The translations under genes were made by a program, and so were the position numbers. From assembly GCA_008632985.1 (NCBI GenBank), contig QPGO01000072.1, positions 62,001 through 126,000 on the forward strand: a stretch of DNA of 64,000 nt. The letters run 5' to 3'. The stretch is from Psammoneis japonica. Lineage: Eukaryota. Below the pieces are notes generated by a model. It was not told the origin of the DNA, searched no databases, and saw nothing but the letters and a program-made list of their open reading frames with translations. Below are positions 3,257 to 61,088 of the stretch, in pieces; within the stretch, counting starts at the first letter, position 1, and each line of letters opens with the position of its first letter.

Positions 3257-3479
3257 CGGAGTCGCCGGACACATCAACGCGCGCCGCGAATGCGCATGCT
3301 ACATCCCGCTCTCAGCTGCGTCGCCATCTTGTCCTCGACTTTTGCACCGTGCATCAAAGAGACATGCAGAGAATCCTTTCAACCAACAGGCTGGTTTCAG
3401 CAAGAAATGCACCACATTGACACGTTCTTCATGTCACACATAATGTCCACTTGACATTGTCAGTTGGTGAAACACTTCT

Positions 3480-6400
3480 CTGCAGTTGCGCCAAAAAACA
3501 AAAAAAAAGTTGTCAAGAACAGCCATGCAGCATCATGAGTGGGTCTGGAGGTTGTGCCACCTGAGGTTGAAAGCAGTTGTTGTTTTGCAAACTGTGCATG
3601 TGTGTGCCATGTCATTGATTTGAACATGTTTTGGGCAGGCTTGTTTTGTTGACAACCCCAGGAGCACTCTTCTTGTTGCAATTGCTGGCTGGCACTTGTG
3701 CAAAATGTGGCACGACAAAGATGCTTTTGATCTGGTGGGGCGTTGGAGCAACAAGCTGGGCTCCATTCTCCATCCCACATGGGATGGTGCTGACTCATCT
3801 GGCTGGGTGAATTTTGTGACTGCTGAGGCAGGGTGAGCAGAGCACACTGTCATGCACAATGCTTGTGCAAGCATTGTTTTGACAAAGCCGCGCACCTTGG
3901 AGCACGACCTCTTTGCTGCCACTTGTCTGAGAGCTTGGCAGCTGTTGCCTGCAGTGTGGCTTTGACTTTTTGCCATTTGCTGACCAGTCTGTCACAGGAC
4001 ACCACATTTGGAGCAAAGCGAGACACCATTGCTCAAGATCCCAAGCCTTGAGATGCTCTCACTTCTTCTCCTTTTCATGAGATTCCATGGATTTCTCTGG
4101 GTCACAGCTTGGCATCCATGTCCGCCACTTGAGGAGCATTGCATGTGGTGCCAGCCCATCTTTCTCACCAACCACACACCACCTGAGTGTTGCCCTCGCC
4201 ATGCCATCTTTTGACCTCCTGAGGTTTCTGGTGGCAACTTTGTCTGTTGAGATCTTTGTGTCATGGCTGCAGCTGGGGGGCTGATTGGAGGTTTTCCACA
4301 CATCAAAGAGAGCTTGGCAGATTTGCCGAAAAGTCAGCAAGCTCATCACAAACTCCATCAGGCCACGACCAGGCCACTTTTTTACATTCCAGTGCATGCA
4401 ACACACAGCACAAAAAAATTTGCCAACACCCAGCACACCACACTCTTCCAGCAGCCACATGTGGAGAGAGCATGTCATGGAATTCTCAACGTGCGCTGGC
4501 CCTGTGCATTGTTTGTGATCACAAAGTTCGCACTTTTCTCGCTGTCGTCTGTTGAGCTCTTTGTGTCATGGCTGCTGGGGGGGCTGATCAGAGGTTTTCC
4601 ACACATCAAAGAGAGCTTGGTGGATTTGCCAAAAAGTCAGCAAGCTCATCACAAACCCCGTCAGGCCATGACCAGGCCACTTTCATGCACTCCACCATTG
4701 CGTGTGCCGCGTGGCACAAAAAACCTTTTCCCACATCCAGCATCACACTTTTTCAGCAGCCACATGCAGAGAGCATGTCATGGAATTCTCAGTGTGTGCT
4801 GGCCCTGTGCATTGTTTGTGATCACAAAGTTTGCACTTTTTTCATTGTCGTCTGTTGAGCTCTTTGTGTCATGGCTGCTGGGGGGGGGGGGGGGCTGATT
4901 GGAGGTTTTCCACACATCAAAGAGAGCTTGGTGGATTTGCCAAAAAGTCAGCAAGCTCATCACAAACCCCATCAGGCCATGACCAGGCCACTTTTTTTAC
5001 ATTCCAGTGCATGCGCACTGCATGGCACAAAAAAATTTTACCCACATCCAGCACCACACTCTTCCAGCACATGTGGAGAGCATGCCATGGAATTCTCAAT
5101 GTGCGCTGGCCCTGTGCATCATTTGAGATCACAAAGTTTGCACTTGCTTGTGATTTTCTTGTCCTCTAGAACAGAGTTGACTTGCCTTCCTTCTTGGTGG
5201 TGTTTTGGCAAACCACCGCCACATGACCACACAGGAGCAAGTCAACTGTGTGAGCAATCATGACGAGAGTGCTCAGTTGACAGCTTTCTGAGCAGACTCT
5301 GAGGGACAAGAAGGGAGACAGAAAGTCCCACGCTGCATCCAATGGGGGGCGGACAGAGGGTGATCCTGGGGTCATCTTGGCCTGGCCGCGAGTCATCCAA
5401 AAGTGCAGGCAGGAAATGACGCATGTGATCACTTCCTTTGCAATGGCAAACGAGTCTCTGCAGTCACTTGCCATGCACATTGGGCACATTGCCACTCATG
5501 CTGCAAAGAGTTCTTTTGCATCCCTGTGCCCCCTTCTTGGAGACTTCTCATCCACCCCCTGCTTCCAAAATTCCATTTCTTTCCCGCCGACAAAACCAGC
5601 AAGGTGTCTTCTTCTTCCAGCGGCAACAGCAAAACCAAGTTCACTGAAGCAATGCTTTGCTGCCTCCAGTCAAGTTGTGGCTTGTGACAGCCAAGATGTT
5701 CTTCTTTTTGCTGTTGGTTGGAAAACACCCTGCTCATTGACCTGGCTCTCTCACACGTGTGCAGAAAAAATCATGGAGATTCTTCAAACCTTCCAGTGGC
5801 TGCCAAGTTCATGGGGAGCAAAGACATCAGGGCCTGCAAGCAGCCACAACAAGCAGCAAGTGGGAGGAATGCCATGCCAAAGAGCCCTTGGGCTGCTGGA
5901 GTGCTTCAGCACTTGCAGCAGTTGAGCACAAGCCAGGCACATGCTGGGGGGGGGGGGGGGGCAGACACATGGTGTCTGATGCTGCGGGGTGCTGGGGTCC
6001 TGTTTGCTTCATTGAAGCAGTTGAAGGCATCAATGAAGAGGAGCCCAAATGCATCTTCATGTTTGATCTGTTTCCAAAGCAGGTTCTCACGGCATTGTGA
6101 ACTCCTCTTTTGGCGCCTTCTTTCAAGACAAGCACAAAGCCAGTCAGCTCCGCAAGCATCTTTGGCTTCCGAGCCAGTGCATCAAGCGACCATCACAGGG
6201 CTTTGGCTGTGATCCACTGCACCAGACATTGCCAACACTGCTGACCAGATGAACAACTGGATTTCGTGGTGGAATTTGAGTGGGTGTTTGGTCCTGAGAA
6301 GAAGAGTGATGCTGCACATGGCAAGCGGGGCCAAGCGGAGAATCCATTTGCAGCCCAGTCAGCGAATCTCCCAAGTGCCTCTCTTGGGAGTCCACTGGAG

Positions 6401-6480
6401 TCTCCATGAGACTGAGGAGCCACAAAGTGCACATGGAAAAATGCAGCATTGCACAGTCTTGTGAGGAGCGATTGCATCAC
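3480..6480 (-). mobile_element. Degenerate CRE-clade-like non-LTR retrotransposon (RT plus restriction-like endonuclease), TpA/CpG-depleted
   Basis: Minus-strand fragments: GLLFIDAFNCFNEANR and PACAWLVLNCCK (~6050-5910; cf. RT LIDAxNAFNExNR...PSGARFxFNCY); GMQKNSLQHEWQ and FLPALL (~5530-5400); DPEKSMESHEKEKK, FAPNVVSCD, LSDKW and KVRGFVK (~4105-3870; C-terminal endonuclease region). Many stops and frameshifts. Confidence 0.65.
4245..5143. repeat. Three tandem copies of a ~303-305 bp unit inside the non-LTR relic
   Basis: ctgttgag(a/c)tctttgtgtcatggctgc...ggttttccacacatcaaagagagcttgg...acaaagtt(c/t)gcact recurs at ~4245, ~4550 and ~4852. Confidence 0.9.
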
Positions 6481-7318
6481 GAGATGTCTCGTGTTGACGC
6501 AGTTGAAGCATCTGCTTTGTTAGTCTACTGGGCCCTACACGGCAAAGCACGCACGCGAAAACGAACTGCCACAAAAATTTGAAATCCATGCGTGTTGAAC
6601 TCGAAAAATTAACGGTATTGCCATAATGCATTTGTGCATGAATATGTCAATAATTCTTATGGCTAATACTGGGGATTCATAGACGTTTTTTTTTTTCAAC
6701 TGCCGTGGACACCCATCCTCTCCAAGCTTGGGGGGCGACTTTGGAAGTGAGATCGTCGAAGGCGGTCTGATCGCCAGTGCGTTTGGGGGTTTTCCCAGTA
6801 CAATTTGTACGCACAAGAAGACACGTAGGATCTGTCCAGAGGTCCCAAATACCAATCGCACTGATTGACAGACTGTTTTAGTACAAATTCTACGTAACTT
6901 TCTTCGACAGTCTCACTTCCGAAGACGTCCCAAGCTCGCAAGCGGAGACTGGAGATCTGAGATTTGAGAATGAACAATGAACAGAAGGAATGAAGAGTGG
7001 CAGCAAGTTTCAACAAAGTTGCACCATCGAACGACTGAATTAATGTGAACCCTTCGCATTGGTGTCACCCGTTCCATTGGTGTGCGACTCTTTAGAGTAG
7101 GGGTAGCTAAGTAAATCACAAATCACAATCTTTGGGGATTCTCACCTCTTGGTTGCATCGCGCGATCTTTACACAACTCCATCATCTATTACGGTTTCAT
7201 CAGTGAGTAGCAACCGGATTCTTTCTTTCTTCTTACGTACCCAAAACAAGCAAAAGCCTTGTTTTCCAAACCGCTGCTGCTAATGTAATGATTTGCTTCT
7301 CCTCCTTTCGTCTTGCAG

Positions 7319-9118: not shown

Positions 9119-9674
9119 GCCGGAAGCTAGCTAGGTAATAGAAGGAAAGTAGAGCCGTAGGCTACTATACCAACTTGCTGGTTATTTACTTGGGTCCTAT
9201 TCATAGTCATAAAAAGCTCGTAGTCACCATGAGCTGTACCTGGTACGGCCGTAGAGAGTTTACAGTTGCGGTATTCATAGCATGGACCTTGCTTTTTGGT
9301 CGTATCCAATTTGATCTATCTGCATCTCTTACTGAAACATGTAAATGCTGACAGGGCATTAACGGTCGCCTGCCTGTAACCATGACAATTCTCTCCCGCA
9401 CTTCGTAGCATGTACAAAATATAGATGATTGATCTTTCCAGGCTTTGAACAGTCCATCAGACTTGCTCTCATCTAAGTCGAGTGCCTATCAAGATCGTTA
9501 GTTGTCCACGAAAGAATATGTACACCGTAGTGACGCAGAGAGGTTCCGCACTTCAGTCACGTGGTTGATCGATGCCGCCCCCTTCAGCAACTCACTTGCT
9601 ACAGCAGTCTGATTTAAAGTGCCTACATTTTAAAAGCATGAGCCTCTTGTAACTCCTAAAATAATTCATCTGTG

Positions 9675-10375
9675 TCATCCTTGAAACATGTCTTCGCCTT
9701 TCTTGGAAAGGAAATTTAGCCATTCATCCTTTTTCCACCCGCTAGAAACAATGTTTGCTTCTAAACCATTGACAAATACTGTGGGCGTAACGTGAACACC
9801 CCGAGTTCGATGATACTTGGTTGCCCACTTTAGGTCTTGCGTCATTGCGTTACCTTCGTTACCACCCTTGCCGGTTGGCATCAGCAGGGCCTTTACCGCC
9901 GCCTTGTCTAGTTGTAAGTCATCTGTCAACGCCAAGAGCTCATCATAGATTTCCATACGGGTCTTGGTCCAAGTTTTTTCATCCTTAAACTCACCAGTGG
10001 CAGTGAAAGCATTGTAAACGGAATTGATGTACGCCAGATAGGCATCCGGTGCGACTTTTTTGACAGCGAGAGCAGCTTCGTGAACCATGGTGCTTTGTGG
10101 ATGCCACTGATAGGAAGGAGTTCAAATTGCTGTGAATAAGGCCGTAAAAGTTCACATTAGGAACCATTCATCATACTTACAGGTTGAATCACGTGGTTGA
10201 GAACAAACGAAATATCGTTATCGCCCGTGAATTCAGGCAACACGTCGTTGTAAAGAGTCGTAAACATCTTGCAAGAAAAGGGACAAATCAAGTCTAAAAA
10301 AAGCTCGATTTCAATCTTGCAGCGACTACCAGTTATTCCATTTCCACAACGTGTCGGTGGCAACGGCGGGCCCAT
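9675..10375 (-). CDS. Thioredoxin-fold/DsbA-like protein, paralog 2 (exons 10375-10181, 10106-9675; start could extend to 10522)
   Basis: LFLDLICPFSCK and VHVTPTVFVNG motifs; intron 10180-10107 at VIQP|WHPQ. Confidence 0.85.
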
Positions 10376-10656
10376 GGCGAGAAATGTGTTTTTCCTTGCG
10401 CGGCTGACTGAAAAAGTGGCGGGAAACGTGTGCGATGGAACTGGAAGCCAAAAACACACCAAACAGCTAGCTGCCGGTAGCAAAGAGAAGATATGAACAA
10501 GAAATGAGGCTGTCATGGGCATCTCAGTCGCTTTCCTTTTGCGGGAAACAATCTTGTTAGCAACAACAATGCCCGAGCCAAGGATTTAGACCTACGTACT
10601 CTTCAGCACGAGCAAGATTCTTCGTAGCATCTATCTTATCCAGACATGAAGACATA

Positions 10657-12105
10657 TTATAGAGCGATAGTTCCCTCCGAGACCAACTTTCCGTGCTCCG
10701 AGAAATACTCATCACGGATTTCATCTTGTTCTCTCTTTTTGAGGAACGCGATCCATTCAGCCATGTGCCACTCGCCAATAGTTGAATCGTCAACTCGCAC
10801 GCCATTGACAAACAAGGTAGGAGTCAAATGAATCCCACGTCGACGTGCATACTCAGTCGCCATTTTGATCTGTTCCGACATGAGGTTGCCAGAGTGCTTT
10901 CCTTTTCGGATTGGAGCCAAAAACAACTTGAGAGCAGTCAAGTCGACTGTTTTACTCTTTTCCATCTCCTCTAGTACTGACAAAAGCTCCTCGTAGATTT
11001 CGCTTCGACTCTTGGACCACGTGTCGTTATCATTGAACTTTCCGTCCTCCACGAAAGCGCTACAAACGGCGTAAACGTAGTCAAGATACAGTTCCTTAAA
11101 AAGTTGTTTCACAGCAAGCGCAACTTCATGGACCAAGGTACTTTGCTGTGATGAGAAACATGTATGTGAGTTGGAGCGTCTTTACAAACAAGCATCGTTC
11201 AGAGTGACACGAAACCGGACCGTAGAGTACTTACAGGATGCCACTGCATGATGTAGAGACATGAAAGAGCTCAAAGTCGGCCAACAAGAACAATATAAGG
11301 GACCCAAAACACACGCATAAACACTTACCGGCTGAATGACATGATACAGAATGAACGTAATTTCATTTTTACGCTTCAATGCATGTGCTACTTGTTTGTA
11401 CAGAGTCATAAACACCTTACAAGACGCTGGACAAACCAAATCCATATAAAGCTCCAATTGAAGCGGTCTTTTCGCTGTTCTGGACTCGGGAGGTGGGCCA
11501 ATCGATGGTCCAGGGAGGCAAGGAACGGCAAAAAAGTCCGACTCTGTTTTCAACACCCGCTTTTTCGTCGCTGGATCCACAAATTCATACTTGTATGTTT
11601 TCTGTACGGGTTCGAGTTTATGTGCGGCGCATATCCGAAATTCCTTCCTCTTGCTCCGTGGGTCGTTCCCTGCAACCCCAAGACGTTCCAGAAATGTGGA
11701 ATGCGCCATTTTCTTTCTGGCAAAGGTCCTCCAACGAGCGGCAGAAATAATCTCTCCTGCTTTTTTTATCGCTGGTTTGGGAGGAAATGAAGGAGATGTT
11801 CTACTCCGATTTTCTGCATTCAAGTACTTGCCACAATTGTAATACATGCACATTCTTCGACTTCCCCGCTTCCTTCTCCTTTCCTCGTACGACTCATCTC
11901 TCTCTGCATCTCTGGCTGCAACAGCCGCAGCAGCCGTCGAGATGCGTGCTGGGGCAGCAGAGGAAGCTACTGCCGCCGTGGTGTTTTGGCTTGGAGCGTC
12001 AGAGGAAGCTGCCGCCTGGGTCCCACTGTTACTTGTCTGATGGCTGTTGTTTGCAGATGAAGCAGCTGTTAGAATGCCCAACGAGCTGTTTGTCGACCCT
12101 GCCAT
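10657..12105 (-). CDS. DsbA-like paralog 3 with an N-terminal THAP-like C2CH zinc-finger region (exons 12105-11329, 11243-11235, 11145-10657)
   Basis: CMYYNC...FPPKP...W...RICAAH, followed by LYMDLVCPASCK. Introns 11328-11244 and 11234-11146 flank a 9-nt exon encoding WHP. Confidence 0.75.
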
Positions 12106-12529
12106 GGTGGACGTTGCGGTACGGCTGCAAAGTGCGTGTTTTCAGTGTGGCGAAGCTGCGGAAAGCGTGCCAAGCACAAGTTATCGTCGTCGCATGTCGT
12201 CGCTTGTTTCGCGCTCCGATGTCTTTTAGGCTCTTGACCTGACGGTTGACGATGAGCCATGGCGTCTCGTCAAAGCGCATCGGACCACATTAACATTGCA
12301 CTTCCGAATCTGCCTCGCTTAGAGGGAGCATTGTAGAGGCAAGGAAAAGAATCAACGAAGTGGGCTGCTGATTCTGCTGTGGAAGACGAGTGGTGGCGCC
12401 GGACTTTTCAGAAAGAATTCAAGAAGCATCACAAAGACCCGAGAAAACCCACGTGATTGATGCCAATGTTGGCACAAGCATCTTGCAAGCAAAATTGAAG
12501 AAAGTTGCTTCAGAAGAGCATGCGTAATG

Positions 12530-13483
12530 TCAGTGGATTGATGCATGTTTTATACGCAAGAAGCGCAATGACGTCGACACACCCGACATGACAGACTTCC
12601 CGTGCTGTTGTCGCAATGAGTGAAATCTTGTTGTGTTCGGTGCGCAGAGTCTAGTGCTGTTTGTCCGCATGTAGACGAGCACTGTGCACCGCACTTTTGG
12701 AAAGTGCACCACTCCATTCTCTGCAAAGAATGCTTCCATGCGGGCAATGTCCTTCTGTTCCTCGGTGAGGCTGTCTGCCAGCGCCTTTCTCTCCGATTCT
12801 TCCTTCTTTGCTGCCTTTTCGGCCTTCTTTTTCTTCTTTTTCGCTCGAAACTTGCACGTCATTTTGTGAATCTGCCAATGTTGTTTTTGACAGTGTTCGG
12901 AACAATGCGTCACTTCCTGGCAAGGGCAACGCAACTTTCAACGGCTGTGCGGGCAACCAGCTTTCCCATCCATGACGCAAACCTTCTTGCTGACATGGAC
13001 ACCGTTGTTCCATTGCCATTCCTTGGTGATCTCATCAAACTCCTCGTCTCTCAGCACACGTCCAAGTGCATTTCTCTTCCGTTGAAATTGATTGGGGAGC
13101 AAAAAGTCCATCATGCAAATGTCACATTCTTCCTTGGAATGACCAGCGCAGACAATGGTTTCATCCGGCAGTTCCTTCGTTCCTGTCGTCGAAGCATCGC
13201 CCGTGCTGCTCAAGATCTCTCCAGAAAACTTGTCGCGGCAAGGATGACACATGGCCTTGTCTCCCTTGCTCCATTGACAGACATCAAATTCAATTCGTGG
13301 CTTTCGCACATGGCACTTGCCGCAGACGTGGAACTTGGCTTGCGAGTGCTTGGTGCATTCTCCACAGAGGCGGCAGAAAGGATTGGGTTTCTTCCACTGT
13401 TTTGCGGCAAACTCATCCTTGGTGAACTCCTTTTCACACTGAATGCAGGTCTTTGTCCTGGCCTGCTGCTGGTTTGAGCTCAT
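12530..13483 (-). pseudogene. Stc1-like zinc finger plus MYND zinc finger gene, hypermutated
   Basis: KTCIQCEKEFTKDEFAAKQWKK...CRLC; CGKCHVRKPRIEFDVCQWSKG...CHPC; MYND-like CPCQEVTHCSEHCQKQHWQIHKMTC (YCS->HCS). In-frame TGA at 12940-12938, probably from CGA. Confidence 0.7.
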
Positions 13484-13899
13484 GGCAAGTCTGTTGACAT
13501 GCGATGACTCCCATTCTTTGTGTCTGGATCTTGATCCATGCAAAGAAAAGTGTCGATCTTTTGTTGCTCTTGTCCCTTTCATGTGCACCAACTTTTCTCT
13601 TTCCTGCACCAACTGTGCACATTTGTGAGAACAAAAAAACTGCGCGCCGCACTGCATGATGCTGTGTGCCCATGACCTTGAGACAATTCCACGTGGATGT
13701 GTGAATGAACGCCGCAGCCACCCACAGCCTTGAACGGACCGAATGCCAATGGCAATCTTGTTGCAACTCGTCCCCCGCCTGACAAGGCAGCAGCAGCAGC
13801 TGTAATTTTGAGAAAGCGAGCAACATGCACCGTGCTCCAATGGCTGCTGTCCCTCCTCCTGTTGCTCCTGGTGGGGCTGGAGCACCTCTCCAGCAGTTC

Positions 13900-16800
13900 C
13901 AGCAGCAGCACCACCCCCAATGAAGACCTGTCAAGACTCAAGACAGGTGGGTGACCGAGAGGATGGCAATCATTTGGGCGGCCAATGTGCCAACCCACTG
14001 AATCAGTTCTCCACAGCTGGGACAGCTTGCTTGTCCCAAGTGGATTTGTTTGAACACCTCTTGGCCTCCAGCAGCAACGTTGCACACCAAAGGTGCTCTC
14101 CAGCCAGCCTTGGTCTGCCGTCAACAATGGTGGGTGCTGCTGACTGCCAAGTTGCACAACTCCTCCATCACCCCTCTGTGCATGTTCATGACCCAGTGAC
14201 CACATCACCTTGGGATGGTGGGTTGTTCTGTTTCCAAGGCAACACGCACCTGGGAAACTTGCCAACATTCTGAGGTTCCCGGTCGACCCCTTTGGCACCA
14301 TTGTGGGCACTCAAGTCGCACCCACAGCAGCCAAGTGACATGGCCACCTTGGAGGGGGCTTGCTCATGCCTGCACAAACCAATGGTGCTGCCAATGTGAA
14401 AACTGTCCAGGTCCATTGCATGGTGGTGCAAGAAGCACCCCACACCTGCGTGCATCTTGTGCTCAACCGGTGTGACCTCACCCCGTTGCAAGCATGTGGC
14501 AGGAAGGAGCAGCGGGAGCTGTTCATGATGACAGCTGAGCCACCAGAGATGTGGAGCTGCTTGTCAACTGGCTGTGCATCCTTCAGATCTGGCACATTGC
14601 CTTGGCAATCAAGCCACAGCACATTTCCTCCACTGGCAGTGGACACCACAGTGCCATGTGCAACACTGACTGCATGCTGGCATTTTCCAATGTTGTCCCC
14701 AAGCTCTGCATTTGTGGGCCACAACAGTGCAAAAGCAGAGCAGTGCATCTGCTTTGCTTGCATGTTGAAAAAGCGCAAGCACAAGAACCAGATGCAGCTG
14801 CCTGCGTGGCACCCATCATGTCCAAGGAACTCTTTGAGATGGCCTTTCAAGGGAATGTGGCACCCCACATTCACCAACCATGGGTGTTTCTCCCTTTCAC
14901 TGCTTGTGGCTTCTTCATGGGAGACAAGGGGTCCACAATCCAAGTGAGGGCTGAGCAGACCTTGCACCCTCCATTTTGCAGAACAAGAGCAGCTCTGCAC
15001 TGAGGACATGCCTTTGCCAACCACCACCTGCGCCACTCTGTGGCAGCATGTTGCAAGGCATGAGCATTGTCCTTGATGCCATTCAAGGAACCAACATCTG
15101 TGTGCAGTGGTCTGTTGCAACTTCTGCACCAATGACTGGCATGACATTGTTGATTTGCTTTTGAGCAGTCTGGCACCCTGGTGTCCAAAGGGAATGTGTG
15201 CTGCTGCACATCTGCCATGAGATCCAAATCATGATGGGCGTGTGTGTTTGTGCACTCCCACATGTCCTGGAGCATTCAGTGGTGGCTGCCAAGGTGTTGT
15301 GCCATCAGTTTTTGCTGCTCACACACTTGCAGCACCATCCAATTAGCCTGGGCAGCACCAAGACCATGGGTGTGACCCACATGCAGGCAGAGACTGATGG
15401 CAGTGCTGATGGACATGGAGCTCCAGGTGGTGGTCCACAACATGATCCTGGTGCCACCGCAACAAACTCATCACCTGTGCAGACTTGGTTGAATGCTTTC
15501 ACCCTGGCAAAAGTGTGTTTGGCAACCATCAGGTGCTTTGCTTCTAAAACTGCTGACAGTGCCAGAGCCACCATGTGCAAAACTGTGCCTCTCCCACCAC
15601 TCAAAAGGGACATGCTTCTGAGCACTGCAGCACACATCACAGTCTTGCTTGCACTCTGTGAACACACAGACATGAGCACCTTTGTGCACACACACTTGCC
15701 AAACCCACAAGAAGGTGGAGGTGCAGCACCAGCTCCAGCGCTGGCAGCACAGGCCACCTGAGATGTTGGGTGGGTGAGACATTGGACCCACCTGCAGCCC
15801 TCAGCTGCTGATGCACCTGATCCAGGCTGCACCAGCAGCATCCGCTGAGTGACAAACCATGTGAGTTGGCAGCTGAGAATGATGCACTCTTGCAGAAGTT
15901 GGGCTGGACCCAGTTCATGAGTTGCTTTTGCACAGGGAACCTTGTCTGGTGGAATTGGCTGGTGATCTGCCACACCCAGCCACTGGGCCATTGCAAAGCC
16001 TCTGCAACAATGGAGCACCAGTCTCCAATTCAGTGCTGACAACTGGATGACCACCAGCATGATTGAGAAGGCTGTCAACCAAGGCAGCTGTTCATCTGCA
16101 AGAGACCATCTGGGACTCCTTGAAGAAGATGGAATGACCAACATGATCTGCCATTGCTGCTGGGTGGTGCTCCCACATGAGACCGCCAAGCACCTTCCAC
16201 ACCTCCAAATCTCACCCATGGATGTGGTTCCCCACCAATGAGAATGTGGTGACCATGCACCATCGTCTGTCTCAACAATGAAATTGTCAAGCTGCCACCA
16301 CCAAAGCATGCAGTTCAGATGACCACTTGAACAAGTCCTCTGCCAGATCTTCCAAGCAGATCCCACGTTCAGTCTGGCACACATGACAAAGCTCGACCCA
16401 TGTGATGGCTTTTGCCAGGCAGGTTTGTGCCCACATGACATCCCAAAGCTTGGTGTGGCAGCCCCAGTTGGGCCTGGAGAGGATCCTCTTGTCTCACCAA
16501 ACCCAGTGCATCCAATGGCTTGGACCAAAAGCCCACACGGTGGACCTGGCCAATCCCCATGCCAGCCCACCCAGGAAGTGACAGCCTCCACAAAGCAGCA
16601 CCACCATCTGAGAGCATTTGCATTGATGATCCTTGTCTGAACCATCAAGTGCAGACTGCCACCTGGACCAGCTGCCTGATCAACAAACTGTGCACAGCAA
16701 GTGGTGGCGGGGACCACACACTCTGTCCAAGCAACATCACACATTTTCCAGCAAGGAAGCAAAGTGCACCTCAACCATCTCTGGTGGTGCTTGTTCTACA

Positions 16801-17370
16801 TCAACAGCTGGGTGTGCTGACCAAACACCACCAAGGACCAGCCCAGGCATCATGGAGCCATGTCCTTGAACAAGCTCTTCAAGGGCAACAACACCTCGTG
16901 GTCCACGATCAAATCTGTCCTGGAATGGATCATCAACTCCCTTGCTGGCGCCATCTAACTGCTGCCACCACACTGCCAAGAGCGCCTCCTTGTCCATCCT
17001 CAACACCTCCACCAAGTTCCCAAGCAGCATTGGCGGCATTGGCCATTTCAGCTGAAAGGGAGAAGGACAGATGCCACAGCTGCCAACAGCCTCTTGAATG
17101 GGCCAAATGCCAGGCACAGCATTCTTGTTGCAACTCGTCACCACCTGATGAGGACACAGCAGCAGTTGTAATTTTGAACCCCCTCTCTCCCTCCCTGGGC
17201 TGCCTGGCAGCAGTTCTGGGCCAACTGGGGAGTTTGTCACCCCAGCAAAGCCTGAAGCCACCAAAACCGCCACCACATGCTGCAGACAAAGTGGAGCCAA
17301 CTCCCTTGGTGGCATCAGCTCTGCACAGCACCTCCTGCAGCCACATCATTCACCTCTCAGAGAATTGAGT
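13900..17370 (+). mobile_element. Degenerate DIRS/Ngaro-like retrotransposon (gag-like region plus RT), TpA/CpG-depleted
   Basis: RT remnants WVVLPHETAKHLPHLQISPMDVVP, SMQF, ADPTFSLAHMTKLDPCDGFCQ...DIPKLGVAAP...GEDPLV...PMAWTKSP, and ICIDD in place of VYVDD (~16050-16630). Gag-like PHTCVHLVLNRCDLTPLQA at ~14440. Boundaries are approximate and no tyrosine recombinase was confidently seen. Confidence 0.7.
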
Positions 17371-19600
17371 GCATCATCTTTTGTGCATGAATGTCATTCA
17401 ACATTTCACATCCTGTCGCCCATTGCCGCAATGCCCTCACTGTGCTCATGGAAGGTGTTCACAGTTCATTTTTGGGGGGTCAATTTTTCTGGTGCAAATT
17501 TGTCATAGCTCCTGCGACTGTGCTTTGCCGTGCAATGATGATGCACCAAACACATCAACCTGGGACATCACAACATCTCGCATTGCAAACACTCTTCAAG
17601 ACTGTGCATTGCTGCTTTTCTCCATTTGCTGCACGTCGTTCTGCTCACGATTTTTTCTCTGCAATTCCCTGCGGTGGTGGTTTTGGGTCATTGAAACACA
17701 TCAAATGCTTGCTGGTTGTTGCATGAGTCGCCAGCTGTTGTGATGGCACTTTGTTTGCCCAGCAGATTCACTGCAGTTCTCCAGCAATTCAAGAAGAGTT
17801 GTGTTAGACTCAAGCACAGGGGGGCTTTCACCAGAATCTTGAGTCAGCTGGATGACATCATCTTGCAGGGTGTCATTTCCATTGTGCACCAATCACCATT
17901 TTCTGCTGTCTCACATGGACTCAACACTTTCATGTGCATTGTGCACCAGCTGGAGGCTGCTGGCCTGCATTGGACAGAAACTTGCGCATCTCAGATTCAT
18001 CTTTGTCATGCACCGAACCAGATGTAGACTCACACATGCAAGGGACACACAAGAGATGGTCTCCCTCCAAGTCGTCCAGATCTGACTCCTTCATCTGGCA
18101 GAATGGACAGAGTTTGGCTTTGCAATTGTGCACTCATCAACTCCTTCAGCAGCAAGAAATGAGTGAGGTGTCTCTGTGGTGGGCCCATCAACAATGCTTG
18201 CATCTTCATCTGTGCAAATGTCTCCAAATGTTTTTCAAGCATTGGTGGCCACTCATGAACACATCCCGTTTTGGTCTTTTCACAAAGCATTGCACATGCC
18301 AGGCAGGATGGAATCTTTGTTTTTGATGGCACTGCCACTGGCTTTGCTGATCTCAGTTGCCAAAGCCTCATGCAGTTCCAGATCTGGTGGGTTTTGATGC
18401 TTTGCTGGAAGGTCTGCAGCTGCCTTTGGGCCACAACCTGTGACCCCCCCAGGATGCACGTCACAACCGAGCATCAGCGCTGACAACACACATGTCATTG
18501 GATGTTGTGCCCTGCTGAACACTGGGCAATTGGGAATGTGTCCTTTGTTTGTTGGAAGAAATGGGCACCTCTCCAATTTTGGACAGAGCATTTTGCCAAG
18601 AAGATCTGCAACTGGTTTTTGACCCATGTGTGTTCTGAACGAACGAATCTGTTGCTGCTCGAGTCTCATGGCAATTTTGATGTCTTTTGCCATGACATCA
18701 GCAAGTTCTCCATTCAATTTCCCACTTTGGCCAACATGCATGACGAAGTCAGAATTGCCCAAGACAATGAATTGCACATCCCCATCTGCTGTCATCTTCA
18801 CAATCCACGGATCTGCTTGAGTCGGGGCTGTTTCAATGCTGATGTTCCCCTTTCCAGCTGAATCACATTCTTCAACAAATTTTTCCAGCTTTGCAGAGAA
18901 GTCAGGTGGCAGTTGCTGATGCTTTGTGCAGTTCTTAAGACTTCGAATCTTCTTCTACACTCAACTGATTTGGGCAGCATGCTCGATCGTGTTGCACTGT
19001 TGTTGCGCAAGGAGCGACTGCAATTCTGTTCTCACAGCAATGAGCCAAATGCTCTTCTTCTCTGCATCAGCCTGTCTGAAACAAGATGTCCACTTTGATG
19101 GATGCCTGTTTGCTGGGTGGTTGCAGATGACATGCATGTCAATCAAAGACTCGGAGCAGGCACGAGCAATGTGCTGTGCTGCACCATGATCTGGCGCAAA
19201 CATGATGGCCGATCGTGCACGTGTTTGTGGCAAAGAAGGTTGGCATCAATGACTCCTTTTAACCGTCTTTGCTCGGGTTGCTGTGTGGCATCACCGACTT
19301 GTTGCTCAGCAGACATGCCACTTGATGGTTGACAAGACTGCTCCAGTGCCACACGTTCCAATGCATGAGTTCCGACATCGAAAATGGCAGCTCTTCCGTC
19401 TGCCAAGAGCACTTATCTTGACCACTTGTTCCCATTGTTGTGAAAAGAGCTGGAAGATGTTTTGAAGGTGACGCTCGTATTGAAGGTGTCGCTTGCGTTA
19501 ACTGCGTTGCCGAGCCGTTCGTTGACCGTCCAAGTCATTGCAGACCTCAAACCGGTGCGGTGCGATGCACATCATGATGCGACGGATGCGGCATGGCTGT
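17370..19600. mobile_element. Unidentified degenerate coding-like sequence continuing the TpA-depleted block
   Basis: Same dinucleotide signature with fragmented ORFs (e.g. 18280..18801 minus); no recognisable domain. Confidence 0.35.
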
Positions 19601-19794
19601 CTCACTTCAACACGACAAAGTACGTACGTAATTTCTACGTATTTTTTGCATGCCCCCCCACTCTCAAATCTATGATCTATGAACACCTTCCTCTTGCGTT
19701 TTCATTTTTTGTGATGGGCACCGTTAGTTGCCGTCCACATTCCACATCTCCGGTTGCGATGCTGATTGCAAACAGGAGACCAAGAACGGACACG

Positions 19795-21255
19795 ATGCGT
19801 CCCCCGATATGTACAATAATGTGGATGATAGCATTCGGGGCTTGTAATTCGTTTGCTTTTGTCGTTCAACATCAACCACGGTTCACACAACATCACGCAA
19901 CAATATCACGAGGCTCATCATCACATCATATTGCATTCATGTTACCGGAACAATTGTCGATATTATCCATTCACGAGTCTTCGACCAATGCAAATTATTT
20001 TGAACTTCTGTCACATCAGCTTCCATCTGTTTTATTGGGAAGAAGCAACGCCGTGTTGGAGTCGATTCAGTCAGAAGAACGCCCCTTTCAATATCTATTT
20101 ATGCTTCCAACCATGACTTTGGTGGCAACTTGGTACGTGTGTTTTCATCAGGATTGTCTAAAACGCATCCAGACCAGGGCATGCTGTGACGATGGATGAT
20201 TCAGATTCAAGAAAAAGTGCTAGACTATTGCATCTTACCCATTTCCGAGCAACGACGAGGGATCAGTGTTGATTCTTATCCGTGTCGACATTGTCCTCTT
20301 CCAACCCACCTATGTTGCTTTACGTGTCATTCTTTCTTATCACAGCTGTCAATTAGCTGGTATTGGTGGTGCGGCATTGCTGTCGCCCATCTTTTTATTG
20401 ATTTTCCCCGTGTTGGGTCCGTCCTATCCGTTGCCAACCGCGGCATCTGCTATTGCATCTGCCCTCTTGACGGAAGTCTTTGGATTTGCCTCTGGCCTAA
20501 GTGGCTACGCACGTCGAGGTTTGGTAGATTGGACCGTGGCGTTACAATTCATGGTACTGAGTGTCCCCAGCGCCCTTGCCGGAGCCGTTTGTGCCTCGAC
20601 GGTAGCATCCAATCCAACCTTGTTGCGTGGTGTGTACTCGTTGCTCATGCTGGGCCTATCGTATTATCTAATTACAAGTGAACCTCCAGACAAAATTGCC
20701 TTGTTGGAAGATGAATGTAATGTACAAGATATTGAGAACGCTAGTAGTTTGCGTCAATTGACGGCATCCGATGGGACGGAGTTTACGTACTTGCCACAGC
20801 CACAGGGCGATATCAAGGGCAGCAGTGTCACATTGGCCGGAAGTGCCTTGACGGGCCTCTTGGGTGTGGGAGTGGGTGAAGTGATTTTACCACAATTGGT
20901 ACGAAAGTGTTGCATGCCACTACCCGTGGCTGCGGGAACGTCTGTGGCTATTGTCGTGGTGACAGCCTTGACGGCAGCGCTCGTTCAATTCTTGAGTTTG
21001 GCATCGCAGGTTGTCGGAGACACGTTGTCACCGGCGTTTGATTCTAATTATATTGGAGCGGTATGGAATGGACTGATTCAGGTTGTTCCGTGGAGTCTTG
21101 TTCAATACACGGTTCCTGGGGCTTTGATTGGCGGTCAATTGGCCCCGTACTTGGCGAGTCGACAAGTGTTTTCCGACGAAACTATTGAGACTTTTACAGC
21201 AACCCTCTTTGGTATAGTCGGGATTGCATTTGGAATAAAGTTTCTAGTTGGATAA
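19795..21255 (+). CDS. TauE/SafE (sulfite exporter-like) membrane protein with an N-terminal targeting extension (exons 19795-20132, 20346-21255)
   Basis: Spliced VATCCQLAGIGGAALLSP, second repeat GLLGVGVGEVILP, and AAGTS. Multiple TM segments; GTACGT...CACAG intron. Confidence 0.82.
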
Positions 21256-29763: not shown

Positions 29764-32700
29764 TCAAATGGAGCTGGCTGCGGTTTCAATGGCCAAACTC
29801 ACATATTCGTCCACCAAACTAAAATCACTCTGAAGTAGCTTTCCGAGTATTTCGGCACTTTCTTTGTCGTTCGTTGCACGTAGCCTTGCCTTCAACTCGT
29901 TCAAAACAAGCTGCGCGCCAGTCTTGGAATTTACTGCCAAAGTATTAATGGCGAGCCGTTTCACATCAAGAAGGTCCTTGCTGACTTTAGACGGATCTAC
30001 AAACAGGGCTCTCACAAACTCTTTCGTGATGCTACCTTCCATGTCTGCCATGTCAACTCGCATCATCTCGATGATCAGAACTAACAAATGAAACGTCACG
30101 GGTTCTGCACAAGTCCCACAACGTGTTGGCGTGAACGGAACTTCGGATTTGACGGATCCCAAGTCCAACAACGCATCATGTTGTAGCCTTACCCACGCGT
30201 CAATTCTTCGTCGAATTTCGTAGCATTCCCGCTCCGCCTCGCGCATTAGCCGGTACAGACGAGCGCACTCTTCCGACAGTTTCTTAGGCGATTGTTCTTC
30301 ATCCTTTTCCTTACCACCACCGCTATTGCCGCTCCCCCCACCACCTCCTCCTTCCCCGGCACCACCATCTTCGGCATCACCAACTCTTCCACTTTGTCCT
30401 CGAGACCGGGATTGAATACTAGCTACCAAACGACTGAGAGAATCCGAAGAGTCGAGTGGTAGGACGTCCACTCCATCAGCGCCGCTGAAGAAACCAAGCA
30501 CGTCCCCGTCCTCTTCCATATCTTCCACAAGCAGACCTGTGCTGCTAGAATTCAATAGCGTTTGGCGAAGCAACAAGTCACCACTTCTTCGATCAGAATC
30601 GCTCCCACGTAGTTGACGGGCCAAGCGAATCAAAGATCGTGCTCTGTTTGCAGACGAACCGCGACTGCCAGACGACGGACGTCGCGATGCGATTGACGCA
30701 ACGGCCGATTCTCGTACACCACTGCCGCTCCGCCCGCTTCTTCCTTCACCCCCCTTTCCGCCGGTAGAAGGTGGAGGCTTCCCAAGAAAGGCACGTTTTA
30801 GCGATGGCCCGTGCGAAGAGAGAGCCTCAAACTCTTCGAAATCTCCCCAACGAGGGCGTTTCTTCGTTCCACAAGACAAAACCTTTTCCTTCAGCTTTGA
30901 CCGGAGATCACCATGCAGTTTTGTCGCAACGCGCAAGATTTTTGTCGCTCTCGCATATGAATCCTCATCAACAACAGCCACGGCATTCGAAGCAATGCCC
31001 GCGGTAAGTTCATAGTCAAAGCCTCCGCAGGAGCAATAGCCGCATTCAACACACAAGAAGGCATCCAAACGGTCGTAATTGATATGTCGACATTTCCTGC
31101 ATTGAAAAGCAACTTCTCCACAGTTTCCGCACACTCCGTGAGCATTCGTGACAAGCCTCGTACACCTCGGACAATGGAGTACAAGCGAGCCGTCTGAGGA
31201 CCTACTCGTGCTCCCCGGCCTGTCGTGGAACTCCAAATATTCAAATTTCAAGTTTGCAGCTACAACGGGCTCAGGCAGAGTACAGGAAAAACGAGAAGCA
31301 CCGCGTGATAGAGTAAGCGTAGCGCATCGCTGCCACATGGAAGAATACTCCTCACTCTTGAGAGTGTTGACGTCGACAACTTGCCGCGGCGTGAAGTAAA
31401 CAGCAATGGTTTTGACGTATCGAGCACGTGGATCGGTTACCGTCAGGTGAATATTTGACACCGCAAGTCGGTACTTTAGCTGGACAAAGTTCGAAAAATC
31501 CGTGCTCACTGTCGCATCGGTCGATGACTCCAGGCTGCCTCGAACGAAGGGTTTGACCTGGTCGGGAAGCCACGGTGTTTCAATCGGTTGGTCGCGCGAG
31601 GTGCCGTGTTCGCAATGATCGGCGTCTTGAGACTCTTTCGGCAAAGAGTCTGACAGTGATTGTCTATGGCAATAGCTACAACATGCCAGATTGAATCGAG
31701 TCTCTGACGATTCGCCATCCGCAGTTTTCGTTTCTAGAACGACGAAGTCCTCTCCCACACCACCGCTCGAATCTTGGTATAATGTTTGCATCTGCAGAGT
31801 GAAACTTCGGATGATTTTGTTGGCAGCGCGTTGTAGCGCCTGGGATCCTTTACAGCGACGAACGAGGGTTTGGACAAAATCCAGAAATTCAACAGAACTC
31901 TCTCCTATTGCGCTGATTTCACCGAGAGGCGTATCGACCATTTTGTCCAGCAGCGAAGTCGAATCTTCCGGCGACAAATTTTCACACAGCCTCTCTGCCA
32001 CTTGACTGACCACTTTGCGAAGCTCGTGCGTTCTGCCTTTGAGGACAAACTGGACGACGAGGGCGTGAATTTCTTCAACATTTAGACCTCTTTGGCCACC
32101 AAGTATAGCGTCTTCTGGCTTAGCGTTGGTGTCGCCGTTGTAGAAAGGGTTTGTCTGTGCAATCCCAACAGTGGCAACCTCGCTTTCGAGTCCACCATCG
32201 GAACTCAACCCTTCCCCGCCGTCCTGAAAAGCATCGTCGATCCAATCGTCCGGAGGATTCAAAGCATTTTCAAGAAGCGTAAACGCTTTTATCTGATTTG
32301 AGCCCGTCAGCGAGCATGCCACCCAGAGAAGGGATACCATGGGAGGGCAAGAAGCAGTTACATTGACCTCCTGAGACGTCTCGTCCTCTGTCGATTTTAC
32401 CGAACTTTTTTGTCCTCCGGCAGAAACCACTGAGAGAAACTGTCGCCAATTTTTACATCGGCTGCGGGCTACTTCAAGTAACTCATCTAGCACCGCTGAT
32501 ATCTTCTTACTTGATTCAACAGCGACACAACCTTCGGAAAGCAAGTCTTGAGTCCCAATCAAGCCGCCAGCTCGCAGGTTCGTCCAAGCAACCCGCTCAG
32601 CTTTTTTCCAGCTAGTACCGCAGCGTCTGGCTTGCTCTTTCCTGACGATAGCTTCCTCTAAACAGCCAAGGGAGCACTTGATGAGGTTGTCATACTCAAA

Positions 32701-44929: not shown

Positions 44930-45330
44930 TGTCTTATGCATCCCATTGTTAAGCTTCTAACGAATTACTTTGTTGTCGGATGCATCCCACTGTACTTGTA
45001 TAGCATCTTAAAAGAATTTGTGGGTCACAGCGTTAAATGGGATCACGACCAGGTTGCTTTATTTATCATACAGCATTTGTTGTCGGATGCATCCCACTGT
45101 GTAAATGGGATCACCAAGTTGCTCTATTTAATATACAGCATTTGGTGTCGGATGCATCCCACAGTATGGCTTCTAAACAATTTACGGGTCACAATGTTAA
45201 ATGGGATCACGAGTTGCTTTATTTATCATACAGCAGCATTTGCTGTCGGATGCATCCCACAGTATGGCTTCTAAACAATTTACGGGTCACAACGTTAAAT
45301 GGGATCGCCACGTTGCTCTATTTATCATAT
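44930..45330. repeat. Degenerate tandem repeat (units of ~65-107 bp) carrying a GGATGCATCC palindrome
   Basis: tgtcggatgcatcccac at about 44973, 45080, 45146 and 45244; gggtcaca...gttaaatgggatc recurs three times. Confidence 0.8.
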
Positions 45331-45477
45331 CGCAGCGCTATTGCCTACTAAATATTGAAGGGATGCAGTATTCGGAAGAGGAAGCAAATAACGATATCCT
45401 TTCACTTTTTTTCACAACGGGGACAACAATCTCCTCACAAAATTGTGTCTGCGGCAGCTGTCAAGATCCCTTGCAAG

Positions 45478-52759: not shown

Positions 52760-53755
52760 TAAAACTTCAAGGCAAATCAGTACATTCAGACATGAAGATT
52801 TTGTAAACGCAAGCCGTGACCGTTTTTCCAAGATTGATGCTTCTTGAAGTTGAGAGACAGTGGCTGGTCTGTGGCCGGCACCCCCTTGTGTGAGCGCGGG
52901 GGTGCTGGACCTGTGTGCGGGGCCAAGCTCTGCTCTTTTGCACAATTGTTTGACAGCACACCCCATTGTACAAGCCAAAAAATGAGTTTCATTGTGGCTG
53001 TTTCTGAAAACAGAGTTGGGCTGAGATGTTTGAAAAAGGTGCCTTTGAGCAAACACTCTCTGGAGATGACTCGCACACTTCAAGCAGTCATGACAGGGGG
53101 GGCACGCCACTTCTCAAGTCAGTTGGAAAATTGCATTTTTCTGTGAGAGGCTGCCAGCTTGTTTGTTGCCCAAGAAACAGCTCTTTTGCTGCAGAGCTTG
53201 GCGCGCACTGCATTTTGCAGGCTGAACATTGCACGTGCTGTTGCATGTGGGGGGCTGGAGCACATGGTCACTTTTGTGGTTTTTGCCAGCTGCTGGTTGT
53301 TGCTGCTTGGGCACAGCGTGCCAGAGCGTGAGCTGGGGGGGTGTCGCGGGCACCTCCTTGGCATGACTGTTGGGTGCCCAACTTGCTGTTGTTGCGTGCA
53401 GGATGTCTTGGACTCCATTGTGCAAGAAGGGAAGTTGTGTGGGCAGGGCGGGGGACAACAAGCTGGCGGAGACTGGCTTTTCAGAGCAACAACCCAGCCA
53501 AACACTCTTTGATGTTCCCACAAACAATCATGGAGAGTTTTGCACATTGTGGCACTGACCATGTCTTTGTGCAGTGCAAAACATGTTTGGCAGACATCAG
53601 CCAGCAGAACCAGAGCTGGTCTTGTTGTGAAAACAAAAAAGGCTCCTCTCCACACTCCACACAGTGTTACTCCACAGCTCTTTGCTGCGAAAGTGGGTGA
53701 AGTGTGAACAACAACAATGACTTCCAGACAGAATTTGGCTTTCCAAAAAGTTGTT

Positions 53756-53964: not shown

Positions 53965-54075
53965 TGTGTCAATAAGTAAACACACGCGCGTAGCCATCAT
54001 ACTGACCCCTACGTGACACAGAATTTGGGAGAGACACACAAAAAACTCACAACGAGCGACGCACAACACTACACC

Positions 54076-61037: not shown

Positions 61038-61088
61038 NNNNNNNNNNNNNNNNNNNNNNNNNNNNNNNNNNNNNNNNNNNNNNNNNNN
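61038..61088. other. Assembly gap (51 N)
   Basis: Run of N. Confidence 1.

Follow-up and report, generated by a model that had tools for sequence, protein, structure and literature searches.

A TpA-depleted island around a putative DIRS-like retroelement remnant in the diatom Psammoneis japonica

The window analysed here is a 64,000-nt stretch of the Psammoneis japonica genome (contig QPGO01000072.1, positions 62,001 to 126,000). It contains three sharp-edged islands poor in the dinucleotide TA, which together make up 10708 nt (17% of the window). The largest, the block at 12674–19600, contains a fragment of a host gene and the remnant of a retroelement, and the genes flanking it are diatom genes. 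The features are as follows (o/e, observed/expected).

3441..6521, no strand: second TA- and CpG-depleted island, 5 TA in 3081 nt
4242-5145: tandem repeat of three 303-nt units inside the island 3441-6521
12518..12673, no strand: partly mutated left edge of the block, part of a repeat family with many copies (word depth 400-3400 vs about 61); 5 TA survive
12674..19600, no strand: TA-depleted domain, 15 TA in 6927 nt, right edge graded at about 18900-19600
12713..13483, minus strand: truncated dead copy of a conserved MYND zinc-finger gene, matching residues 1-256 of the 352-aa P0001; 0 TA, CpG o/e 0.72
12938..12940, minus strand: in-frame TGA of the MYND copy; Arg in 8/13 homologues, consistent with CGA>TGA
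13711..13811, plus strand: left member of the direct repeat (about 110 nt) found on either side of the retroelement remnant; 5 CpG kept where the right copy has TG or CA
13800..19000, no strand: core with CpG depleted as well (CG o/e 0.17, TA o/e 0.04)
13902..15615, plus strand: ORF1 remnant of the retroelement family, with a profile match at 13902-14261 (E 0.0035, whole window) and weak colinear matches beyond it
15934..16991, plus strand: reverse-transcriptase (RT) remnant with stops and frameshifts; Tyr71His, Tyr97His, Tyr150Cys and 11 CpG-type changes
17073..17177, plus strand: right copy of the direct repeat, from self-comparison
17178..19500, no strand: 2.3 kb of TA-depleted DNA with no link to the retroelement; 9 TA, CG o/e 0.33
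52969..53668, no strand: third, small TA- and CpG-depleted island between two genes, 1 TA in 700 nt

The preliminary description of this DNA had reported that TA is absent from 12674–13802 and 13805–15343, scattered in the rest of the block and routine outside it, and the TA positions are exactly as it gave them. TA dinucleotides at 12672, 13803, 15344, 15545 and 16797 delimit TA-free runs of 1131, 1541 and 1252 nt. Outside the three islands TA makes up 3.66% of the dinucleotides in the window (1946/53236), a rate at which a TA-free run of 1539 nt has a probability of about 3e-26; at the flanking TA rate the runs (up to 1541 nt) have probabilities of about 1e-19 to 1e-26. The 15 TA of the block compare with 403.5 predicted by its base composition (o/e 0.037), and CG is also reduced (138 vs 459 expected, o/e 0.30). 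CA (811 vs 445, o/e 1.82) and TG (779 vs 417, o/e 1.87) are raised in balance, their joint surplus of 729 being about equal to the joint shortfall of TA and CG (710), and the remaining 12 dinucleotides have o/e values of 0.89–1.22. The TA depletion of the block is thus confirmed as real and extreme. A search for flanking-base preference at TA sites, based on 4-mer excesses and the 21 surviving TA, gave no clear rule, and an apparent G-YR-A asymmetry in the 4-mers was near the flank ratio.

The MYND copy is a host gene fragment and accounts for about 0.8 kb of the block. It is colinear with P0001, the closest homologue in the family set (P0001–P0015), at 72% identity (E 2e-116), and its zf-MYND domain (PF01753) passes the cut-off of 22.7 bits with a score of 24.1; this was the only domain above cut-off in a Pfam search of 74 stop-to-stop ORFs from the three islands. 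The C-terminal 96 or so residues are missing from the window, and the frame is also broken by the TGA. The changed residues comprise Tyr192Cys, Tyr218Cys, Tyr312His, Tyr342His, Arg201His and Arg328His. All four Tyr of P0001 are replaced by Cys or His through TAY>TGY or TAY>CAY, one of them being conserved in 13/13 homologues, and over the MYND columns the 13 homologues have 2–6 Tyr vs 0 in the window. Among the single-step differences from P0001 are 10 A>G that lie outside TpA, compared with 1 T>C, 1 C>T and 2 G>A. The 10 non-TpA A>G changes may reflect ordinary divergence at 72% identity or a looser context rule; the RT remnant, unlike the MYND copy, has no excess of A>G outside TpA.

The RT remnant gave 492 phmmer matches (best E 8.6e-25), and the profile of the retroelement family matches the window at 15964–16946 with E down to 4e-18, although RVT_1 is below threshold in the RT homologues themselves (14.6–26.5 bits vs a cut-off of 29.6). 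The remnant contains no Tyr, whereas its homologues have 2–8; it has 17 His (homologue median 8) and 11 Cys (median 2). In the three well-conserved Tyr columns it now has His, His and Cys (Tyr in 18/27, 24/27 and 27/27 homologues, respectively). Four motif changes had been proposed for this region. VLPY to VLPH, with Tyr in 18/27 homologues, and GFYR to GFCQ, with Tyr in 27/27 and Arg in 21/27, are borne out. For VYM to AHM the Val to Ala change stands but not the Tyr to His change, since the next column holds His in 7, Tyr in 6 and Phe in 5 homologues; VYVDD to ICIDD is plausible only, the homologue box being DV[F or Y]VDD with Phe in 9 and Tyr in 8.

Intact relatives of the element carry a third, overlapping ORF (about 390 aa), for which sequence searches of Pfam and PDB gave no match. 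Its predicted structure (pLDDT 72.6) resembles Cre, lambda Int and XerD (Foldseek E 1e-6, probability 1.00, TM 0.37–0.45). Neither tblastn nor profile search detected a remnant of this ORF in the window, and, the direct repeat aside, neither inverted repeats nor LTRs were found in the islands by blastn or in purine/pyrimidine space. The element is predicted to be a tyrosine-recombinase (DIRS-like) retrotransposon truncated at both its 5' and 3' ends, the putative recombinase being that of the intact relatives. Its two direct-repeat copies differ by CA/TG swaps of post-insertion origin. The relatives are not equally TA-free, in agreement with the proposal under examination: at 80 metagenome loci of the family, picked by a peptide pattern requiring an intact GFY and hence biased to intact copies, TA o/e is 0.39–1.02, with a lowest 1-kb window of 0.29.

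Because all seven well-placed ancestral Tyr codons (4/4 in the MYND copy and 3/3 in the RT remnant) now encode His or Cys, the loss of TA is the mutation of once-functional sequence by TA>CA and TA>TG, and not a native composition. Both the TG and the CA outcomes occur on the sense strands of the MYND copy and the RT remnant, which lie on opposite strands. The preliminary description had further set this loss apart from the decay of methylated CpG, and the zone at 12674–13400 agrees with it: within these 727 bp no TA is present where 27 are expected, and CG is largely kept (o/e 0.77). Deamination of 5-methylcytosine, as in silenced transposons, is present as the CG loss of the island cores but cannot remove TA, and since TA is gone also where CpG is kept, CpG decay is not its explanation; it is a second, separable process. 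The two nevertheless share locations. Loss of the CpG-decay type accompanies TA loss in all three islands, and at most edges of the islands TA depletion reaches farther out than CpG depletion. Of the 11 listed sites inside the islands at which read contigs of the same depth depart from the window, 7 are CpG vs TpG/CpA. Such co-location makes a mechanism through methylation-linked repair conceivable.

The depletion extends beyond both gene remnants. The best ORF of the 2.3-kb segment at 17178–19500 (18283–18954, minus strand) has no relative among viral contigs and no homologue in a search of 5.8 billion proteins, and a PHROGs search with 11 island ORFs gave no match. No relation among the three islands was detected by blastn or in purine/pyrimidine space. 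The three units of the tandem repeat have mixed CA/TG at 5 sites and keep CG in some unit at 9 sites; they share states and so were not mutated independently, which makes TA ancestry inseparable there from CG ancestry. At the left edge, all eight of the listed differences from other copies of the repeat are TA in the copies vs CA or TG in the window, although several copies carry each state and the comparison alone gives no direction.

No RNA sample is listed as containing the stretch. It is present in one sequencing sample only, in the form of contigs (run X1), which may be the sample from which the window was assembled. With this qualification the reads support the bases, as the proposal required: contigs over the block have a word depth of about 62–66 vs about 61 in the flanks, and one contig of 3542 nt differs from the window at only 4 letters. 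In another run, X2, the flanking genes show intron-like skips and the islands have almost no cover; this was not taken as evidence of expression. All of the evidence is a historical footprint in sequence, as distinct from de novo mutation. We take it as established for the window that TA was lost, in which direction and symmetrically on the two strands, that the loss keeps within bounded domains, and that it is independent of the loss of CpG. The suggestion that the loss is repeat-targeted found no support: the block has single-copy depth at a likeness of at least 90% in the X1 contigs and includes the host MYND fragment, and the islands are unrelated to one another, a result to be read with the left edge being multi-copy and with the fact that copies mutated to saturation would be unrecognisable.

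The preliminary description was aware of no account of the process, but the same spectrum has been measured in mutation-accumulation lines of Bigelowiella natans. This 2026 preprint on a single chlorarachniophyte, which in its available parts gives no mechanism, is the sole description of TpA-directed hypermutation and concerns integrated NCLDV and virophage sequences (Mettrop et al., bioRxiv 10.64898/2026.01.13.699255). As far as its available text goes, i) 230 of 231 mutations in two viral regions were A>G or T>C, all of those at TpA, ii) the de novo rate in the lines was about 1000-fold over background, iii) the hypermutation was switched on in 11 of 15 lines, iv) the main target was single-copy, and v) the genome contains 124 clusters depleted in TpA and enriched in CpA+TpG, the TpA-poor CDS being enriched in RT and DDE domains (10.64898/2026.01.13.699255). 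The two cases are alike in that TpA undergoes transitions to TpG or CpA on both strands, within limited domains and on a foreign or mobile, single-copy target, here the retroelement remnant at 13902–16991; the block, with rho values of 0.037 and 1.85, lies far inside the cluster cut-offs given there (≤0.43 and ≥1.52). They differ in 1) the host, a chlorarachniophyte there and a diatom (stramenopile) here; 2) the degree, since TA is saturated here (0.2% TA) and the B. natans NCLDV region as reported still has 3.3% TpA; 3) the strong CpG decay that runs alongside here, the term 'CpG' being nowhere in the available text of that preprint (10.64898/2026.01.13.699255); and 4) the spread of TA loss into a host gene fragment here. 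No report of TA loss in diatoms was found in the literature, including the available parts of PMC2806351, PMC4504042 and 10.1101/2025.10.24.684338. The block is probably a diatom instance of a very recently described kind of process, not of an undescribed one.

Fungal RIP offers a further comparison: there too, dinucleotide-specific transitions wreck mobile DNA in place, leak into neighbouring sequence and leave copies that vary among themselves at a single type of site. RIP works in the opposite direction, turning CpA into TpA, and its signature (C>T at CpA, with TpA raised and CpA/TpG lowered) is not seen in the block, where TpA is removed and CpA/TpG is up 1.8-fold. RIP also acts on duplicated sequence only and requires a sexual cycle and a methyltransferase of the RID type.

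The block is probably best explained as a silent island of a diatom chromosome around a DIRS-like remnant, altered in place by CpG decay and by a TpA process of the B. natans kind. The TpA process would convert TA specifically to TG or CA on either strand and would have run to saturation, extending 0.2–1 kb past the element and destroying the adjoining MYND gene copy. The CpG decay would be the ordinary change of methylated CpG to TpG/CpA, acting mostly in the element core and still polymorphic. We would expect the TpA process to be enzymatic and directed at silenced or foreign chromatin, with a per-site rate about 100 times that of CA/TG to TA if (CA+TG)/TA (2436/21) is taken to be at equilibrium. 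Adenine and thymine chemistry are inseparable from sequence alone, since TA is its own complement. As a tentative leading guess, the adenine of 5'-TpA-3' may be deaminated to inosine by a polynucleotide deaminase of the ADAT2/TadA type; such enzymes naturally act on A34 of tRNA, a base always preceded by U33.

Among the alternatives, an over-correcting repair enzyme for T:G mismatches, whose proper task is the recovery of C where 5mC has been deaminated, could be recruited to methylated DNA and remove the correct T before A from T:G replication errors, thus fixing TA>CA (TA>TG on the other strand). Thymine DNA glycosylase has a secondary preference for T before A. This reading accords with the co-location of TA loss and CpG-methylation-type decay in the three islands and with the 727-nt MYND zone, where loss of TA with CpG largely kept is what strong repair of T:G to C:G predicts. 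A side effect of this kind occurs in Escherichia coli, where over-correction of CTAGG to CCAGG by very-short-patch repair, which defends methylated cytosines, results in TA>CA; however, as described there, a bacterial endonuclease is at work and acts in a 5-nt context, whereas any TpA is affected here (PMC2715241). We consider the repair reading unlikely, since most CpG is gone from the island cores, which speaks against efficient T:G repair in them, polymerase errors would limit the rate, and activity in only 11 of 15 B. natans lines, as reported, is more like a regulated enzyme attack.

A modified thymine of TpA in silenced DNA, for example one oxidised to 5-hydroxymethyluracil (5hmU) by an enzyme of the TET/JBP type and then misread or misrepaired as C, would leave a footprint identical to that of adenine deamination, TA being self-complementary. 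In dinoflagellate DNA, 5hmU is found preferentially at TpA. Nothing in the sequence points to a modified thymine, however, and 5hmU pairs with A, so that a high yield of T>C needs an extra step of misrepair; this reading appears quite improbable.

Inactivation of invading nucleic acid by deaminases is known from APOBEC and ADAR hyper-editing of viruses and retroelements (RNA or cDNA) in animals, and ADAR prefers U before the edited A. With an RT remnant in the core, the retroelement RNA could have been edited from A to I by an ADAR- or ADAT-like enzyme before reverse transcription and the copy inserted already mutated. Editing of this kind acts before integration and is strand-asymmetric, whereas the changes here are chromosomal, strand-symmetric and reach into host DNA. 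The sense strand shows TA>TG and TA>CA alike, and the loss spans a host gene fragment on the opposite strand, a graded edge in a different repeat, 2.3 kb unlinked to the element and two unrelated islands; moreover, the CA/TG swaps between the direct repeats post-date insertion. We give this origin very little weight.

Selected avoidance of TA and CG in foreign (e.g. viral) DNA, with no mutation involved, is about as hard to sustain. Some phages and viruses do avoid short palindromes, and the island edges are sharp, but no viral family was matched, TA is normal in the relatives, Tyr codons are entirely missing with the conserved Tyr replaced in 7/7 cases, invariant Arg has become His or stop, and the RT frame is shifted. 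Native composition is refuted for the MYND and RT parts, a verdict whose scope excludes 17178–19500 and the islands 3441–6521 and 52969–53668. Least credible is a sequencing or assembly artefact such as systematic miscalls at modified bases, which CG and TA could both bear: X1 is possibly the assembly's own sample, but contigs built from reads at about 62x match the window, and the same read set carries TA in other copies of the left-edge repeat.

If the TpA process in this diatom is that of B. natans, it is more than the peculiarity of a single alga; retrotransposons would be targeted as well as integrated viruses, TpA hypermutation would be separable from the decay of methylated CpG, and the question would move to a group with genetic tools. 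Since every Tyr, TAA and TAG codon vanishes from such islands, they are liable to be mishandled by gene finders and repeat maskers, and TA-free windows could serve as a simple marker of old foreign DNA. It is quite possible, though we would not yet call it probable, that an old, chromatin-aimed and TpA-specific DNA mutator is a genome defence common to the distant SAR lineages Rhizaria and stramenopiles, a 'reverse RIP' with its own enzyme that needs neither repeats nor cytosine methylation. Such a defence would saturate transposon islands, spill into and kill host genes, and shape the composition of diatom genomes.

The block at 12674–19600 contains 15 TA dinucleotides where 403.5 are expected from base composition (observed/expected ratio, o/e, 0.037), and CG is reduced as well (138 vs. 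459 expected, o/e 0.30). CA (811 vs. 445 expected) and TG (779 vs. 417) are both up about 1.8-fold, their joint surplus of 729 being close to the joint shortfall of TA and CG (710), and the remaining twelve dinucleotides have o/e values of 0.89–1.22. TA sites at 12672, 13803, 15344, 15545 and 16797 delimit long TA-free runs, confirming the TA depletion reported in the preliminary description at the positions given there. In the window DNA outside the TA-poor islands, TA makes up 3.66% of dinucleotides, and at that rate a TA-free run of 1539 nt has p ~3e-26. The other two islands are island 1 (3441–6521, 5 TA per 3081 nt) and island 3 (52969–53668, 1 TA per 700 nt); together the three occupy 17% of the window. 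The features in and beside the block are as follows:

12518–12673: multi-copy repeat at the left edge of the block, word depth 400–3400
13483–12713, minus strand: dead copy of a conserved MYND zinc-finger gene (15 homologues)
13711–13811 and 17073–17177: direct repeat of ~110 nt, bracketing the retroelement remnant
13902–14261, plus strand: ORF1 remnant found by profile, with weak colinear matches up to 15615
15934–16991, plus strand: reverse-transcriptase (RT) remnant with stops and frameshifts
15964–16946, plus strand: ORF2 match found by profile
17178–19500: further TA-depleted stretch of the block

In a phmmer search with 15966–16637, for which TGA was read as X, 492 proteins reached E ≤1e-3, the best of them E 8.6e-25. 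Among metagenome relatives of the retroelement, 80 loci were retained from 302 confirmed; they share a plan of three ORFs of ~700, 860 and 390 aa, with ORF3 overlapping ORF2. Using profiles built from 39 (ORF1), 50 of 59 (ORF2) and 50 of 51 (ORF3) ORFs, no match was found past 16946 and none to the ORF3 profile in the window copy, which is truncated. Pfam and PDB sequence searches with ORF3 gave no match. A structure model of ORF3, based on an alignment from 8 of the 80 loci (pLDDT 72.6), resembles Cre, lambda integrase and XerD (Foldseek E 1e-6, probability 1.00, TM 0.37–0.45). This likeness and the three-ORF plan suggest that the family consists of tyrosine-recombinase (DIRS-like) retrotransposons, in agreement with the earlier guess from the RT remnant. 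Two metagenome contigs (L010/L011 and L029/L030) each carry two copies of the family, ~5–6 kb apart, perhaps as tandem or nested insertions. Between the left and right copies of the ~110-nt direct repeat, 20 of 103 columns are different, five of these being CG vs. TG/CA and six (at three sites) CA vs. TG. Both copies keep the same TA (in TGTAATTTTGA), at 13803 and 17169, while ~94% of the expected TA in the block was lost; the shared survival could be coincidental, or reflect a context that resists the change or a site under protection.

The direction of change can be read from conserved codons. The MYND copy is 72% identical (E 2e-116) to its closest homologue, P0001 (352 aa), but aligns to residues 1–256 only, and the conserved last ~96 residues are absent from the whole window. 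It has an in-frame TGA at a position occupied by Arg in 8 of 13 homologues (13 of the 15 matches were used, two partial ones being excluded). All four P0001 tyrosines are lost (Y192C, Y218C, Y312H and Y342H, the last at a position with Tyr in 13/13 homologues), each by one TAY>TGY or TAY>CAY step; over the compared columns, the homologues have 2–6 Tyr and the window none. Other single-step differences from P0001 on the coding strand include 10 A>G outside TpA, one of them the invariant Ile319Val, against a single T>C, a single C>T and two G>A; unlike the MYND copy, the RT remnant has no excess of A>G outside TpA.

The RT remnant was aligned with 27 of the 150 matches listed, taken from the top 35 after exclusion of eight shorter ones. 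Three well-conserved Tyr columns (18/27, 24/27 and 27/27) read His, His and Cys, and the remnant has 17 His and 11 Cys against homologue medians of 8 and 2. The window agrees at 59 and differs at 58 of the 117 columns conserved at ≥60%; 20 of the disagreements need several steps, and the 38 single-step changes comprise 11 CpG-type, 6 TpA-type, 4 other transitions and 17 transversions. At the left-edge repeat, all 8 differences listed (50 further rows belong to the same table) have TA in other copies and TG (3) or CA (5) in the window. Since both states are present in several copies, this comparison shows that, among the differences listed, the family varies at such sites only, and it is because of the Tyr codon replacements that the direction is taken to be TA>CA/TG. 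The preliminary description had asked whether intact copies are equally TA-free: among the 80 related loci, TA o/e spans 0.39–1.02 (median 0.65; lowest 1-kb window 0.29), in a set skewed towards intact copies as the search pattern needed an intact GFY. These values and the Tyr replacements argue against a natively TA-poor composition, and the TA loss is mutational.

CpG decay is also real, as indicated by the 11 CpG-type changes in the RT remnant and by two invariant MYND residues (Arg201 and Arg328, 13/13) changed to His via CGC>CAC. The region 12674–13400 has 0 TA vs. 27 expected, yet its CG o/e is 0.77; that of the core (13800–19000) is 0.17. The TA-poor zone extends 200–1100 nt further than the CpG-poor zone at most of the island edges. 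For read contigs of the same depth, 11 differences from the window are listed inside the islands, and 7 of them are CpG vs. TpG/CpA; CpG decay is therefore still segregating, whereas TA is exhausted. With these different extents, TA loss and CpG decay are two separate processes.

The stretch was found in one public sample. Contigs from X1, the DNA run of this sample, cover the block at a word depth of 62–66 (flanks ~61), and one of 3542 nt differs from the window at 4 letters. The block bases are therefore present in reads, as the earlier account had wished to see checked, which argues against an artefact; the assembly could have been made from X1, in which case this support is not fully independent. 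At ≥90% likeness, the block has a single copy. The initial interpretation is supported in part: TA>CA/TG mutation distinct from CpG decay stands, repeat targeting is conjectural, and the process is not undescribed (see below).

TA changes to TG as well as to CA, and two oppositely oriented genes each show both products on their sense strand; CA and TG are nearly balanced overall. The loss is domain-limited, with edges of 150–700 nt, and extends past the element into a fragment of a host gene and a different repeat. The process would act in place on chromosomal DNA, its target possibly being silenced or foreign chromatin; assuming equilibrium, a (CA+TG)/TA ratio of 2436/21 would put the TA loss rate at ~100 times that of CA/TG to TA. 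Adenine deamination at TpA is our leading, though tentative, candidate. ADAT/TadA enzymes edit A34, which is always preceded by U33, and we favour deamination because this order is the same in TpA. One rival is a repair enzyme, tied to methylated DNA, that over-corrects T:G mismatches, for which bacterial Vsr offers a precedent (CTAGG>CCAGG; PMC2715241); another is a modified thymine at TpA. RNA editing before reverse transcription is disfavoured by the strand, domain and spill-over data.

Several observations concern the surrounding DNA. Island 1 includes a tandem repeat (4242–5145, 3 units of 303 nt, 84% matches) between whose units CA and TG are swapped at several sites. Directly to the right of island 1 is a very high-copy repeat (6728–6931, summed word depth ~5600 vs. 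61), the listed differences of which from other copies are not TA-type. Island 3 is directly followed by a UBR4-type E3 ligase gene (53980–59584, plus strand) that reads as three ORFs in succession (840, 727 and 365 aa). Tandem-repeat arrays lie in DNA of normal composition at 44969–45336 and 46126–46473, the second with direct matches at 33- and 66-nt offsets; an uninterrupted 2454-aa ORF (29764–37128, minus strand) has a GRF zinc finger as its sole Pfam match, and 51 N at 61038–61088 mark an assembly gap. Contigs of another run, X2 (labelled "DNA?"), leave out stretches of 74, 183 and 213 nt, bounded by CT..AC or GT..AG, at 9619–12122 and 19722–20345; X2 looks RNA-like, and the stretches it skips in the flanking genes intron-like.

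A TpA hypermutation has been described in a preprint on Bigelowiella natans (bioRxiv 10.64898/2026.01.13.699255). [quoted passage not shown] B. natans has a reported 6.0% TA, compared with 3.66% in the window flanks. All 10 organism-named matches of the flanking kynurenine-3-monooxygenase-like gene are diatoms (47–58% identity), one MYND homologue is from a Chaetoceros curvisetus transcriptome, and the flanks contain long intron-poor ORFs. The diatom matches, the intron-poor ORFs and the TA content show that the window is diatom DNA and not from B. natans. Literature searches, and term searches within three diatom papers, gave no diatom report of TpA loss. The block matches the one described case. 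What is new, as far as these searches reach, is that the process is present in a diatom, that it has gone to saturation on a retrotransposon island, that it can be told apart from CpG decay and that it has spilled over into a gene.
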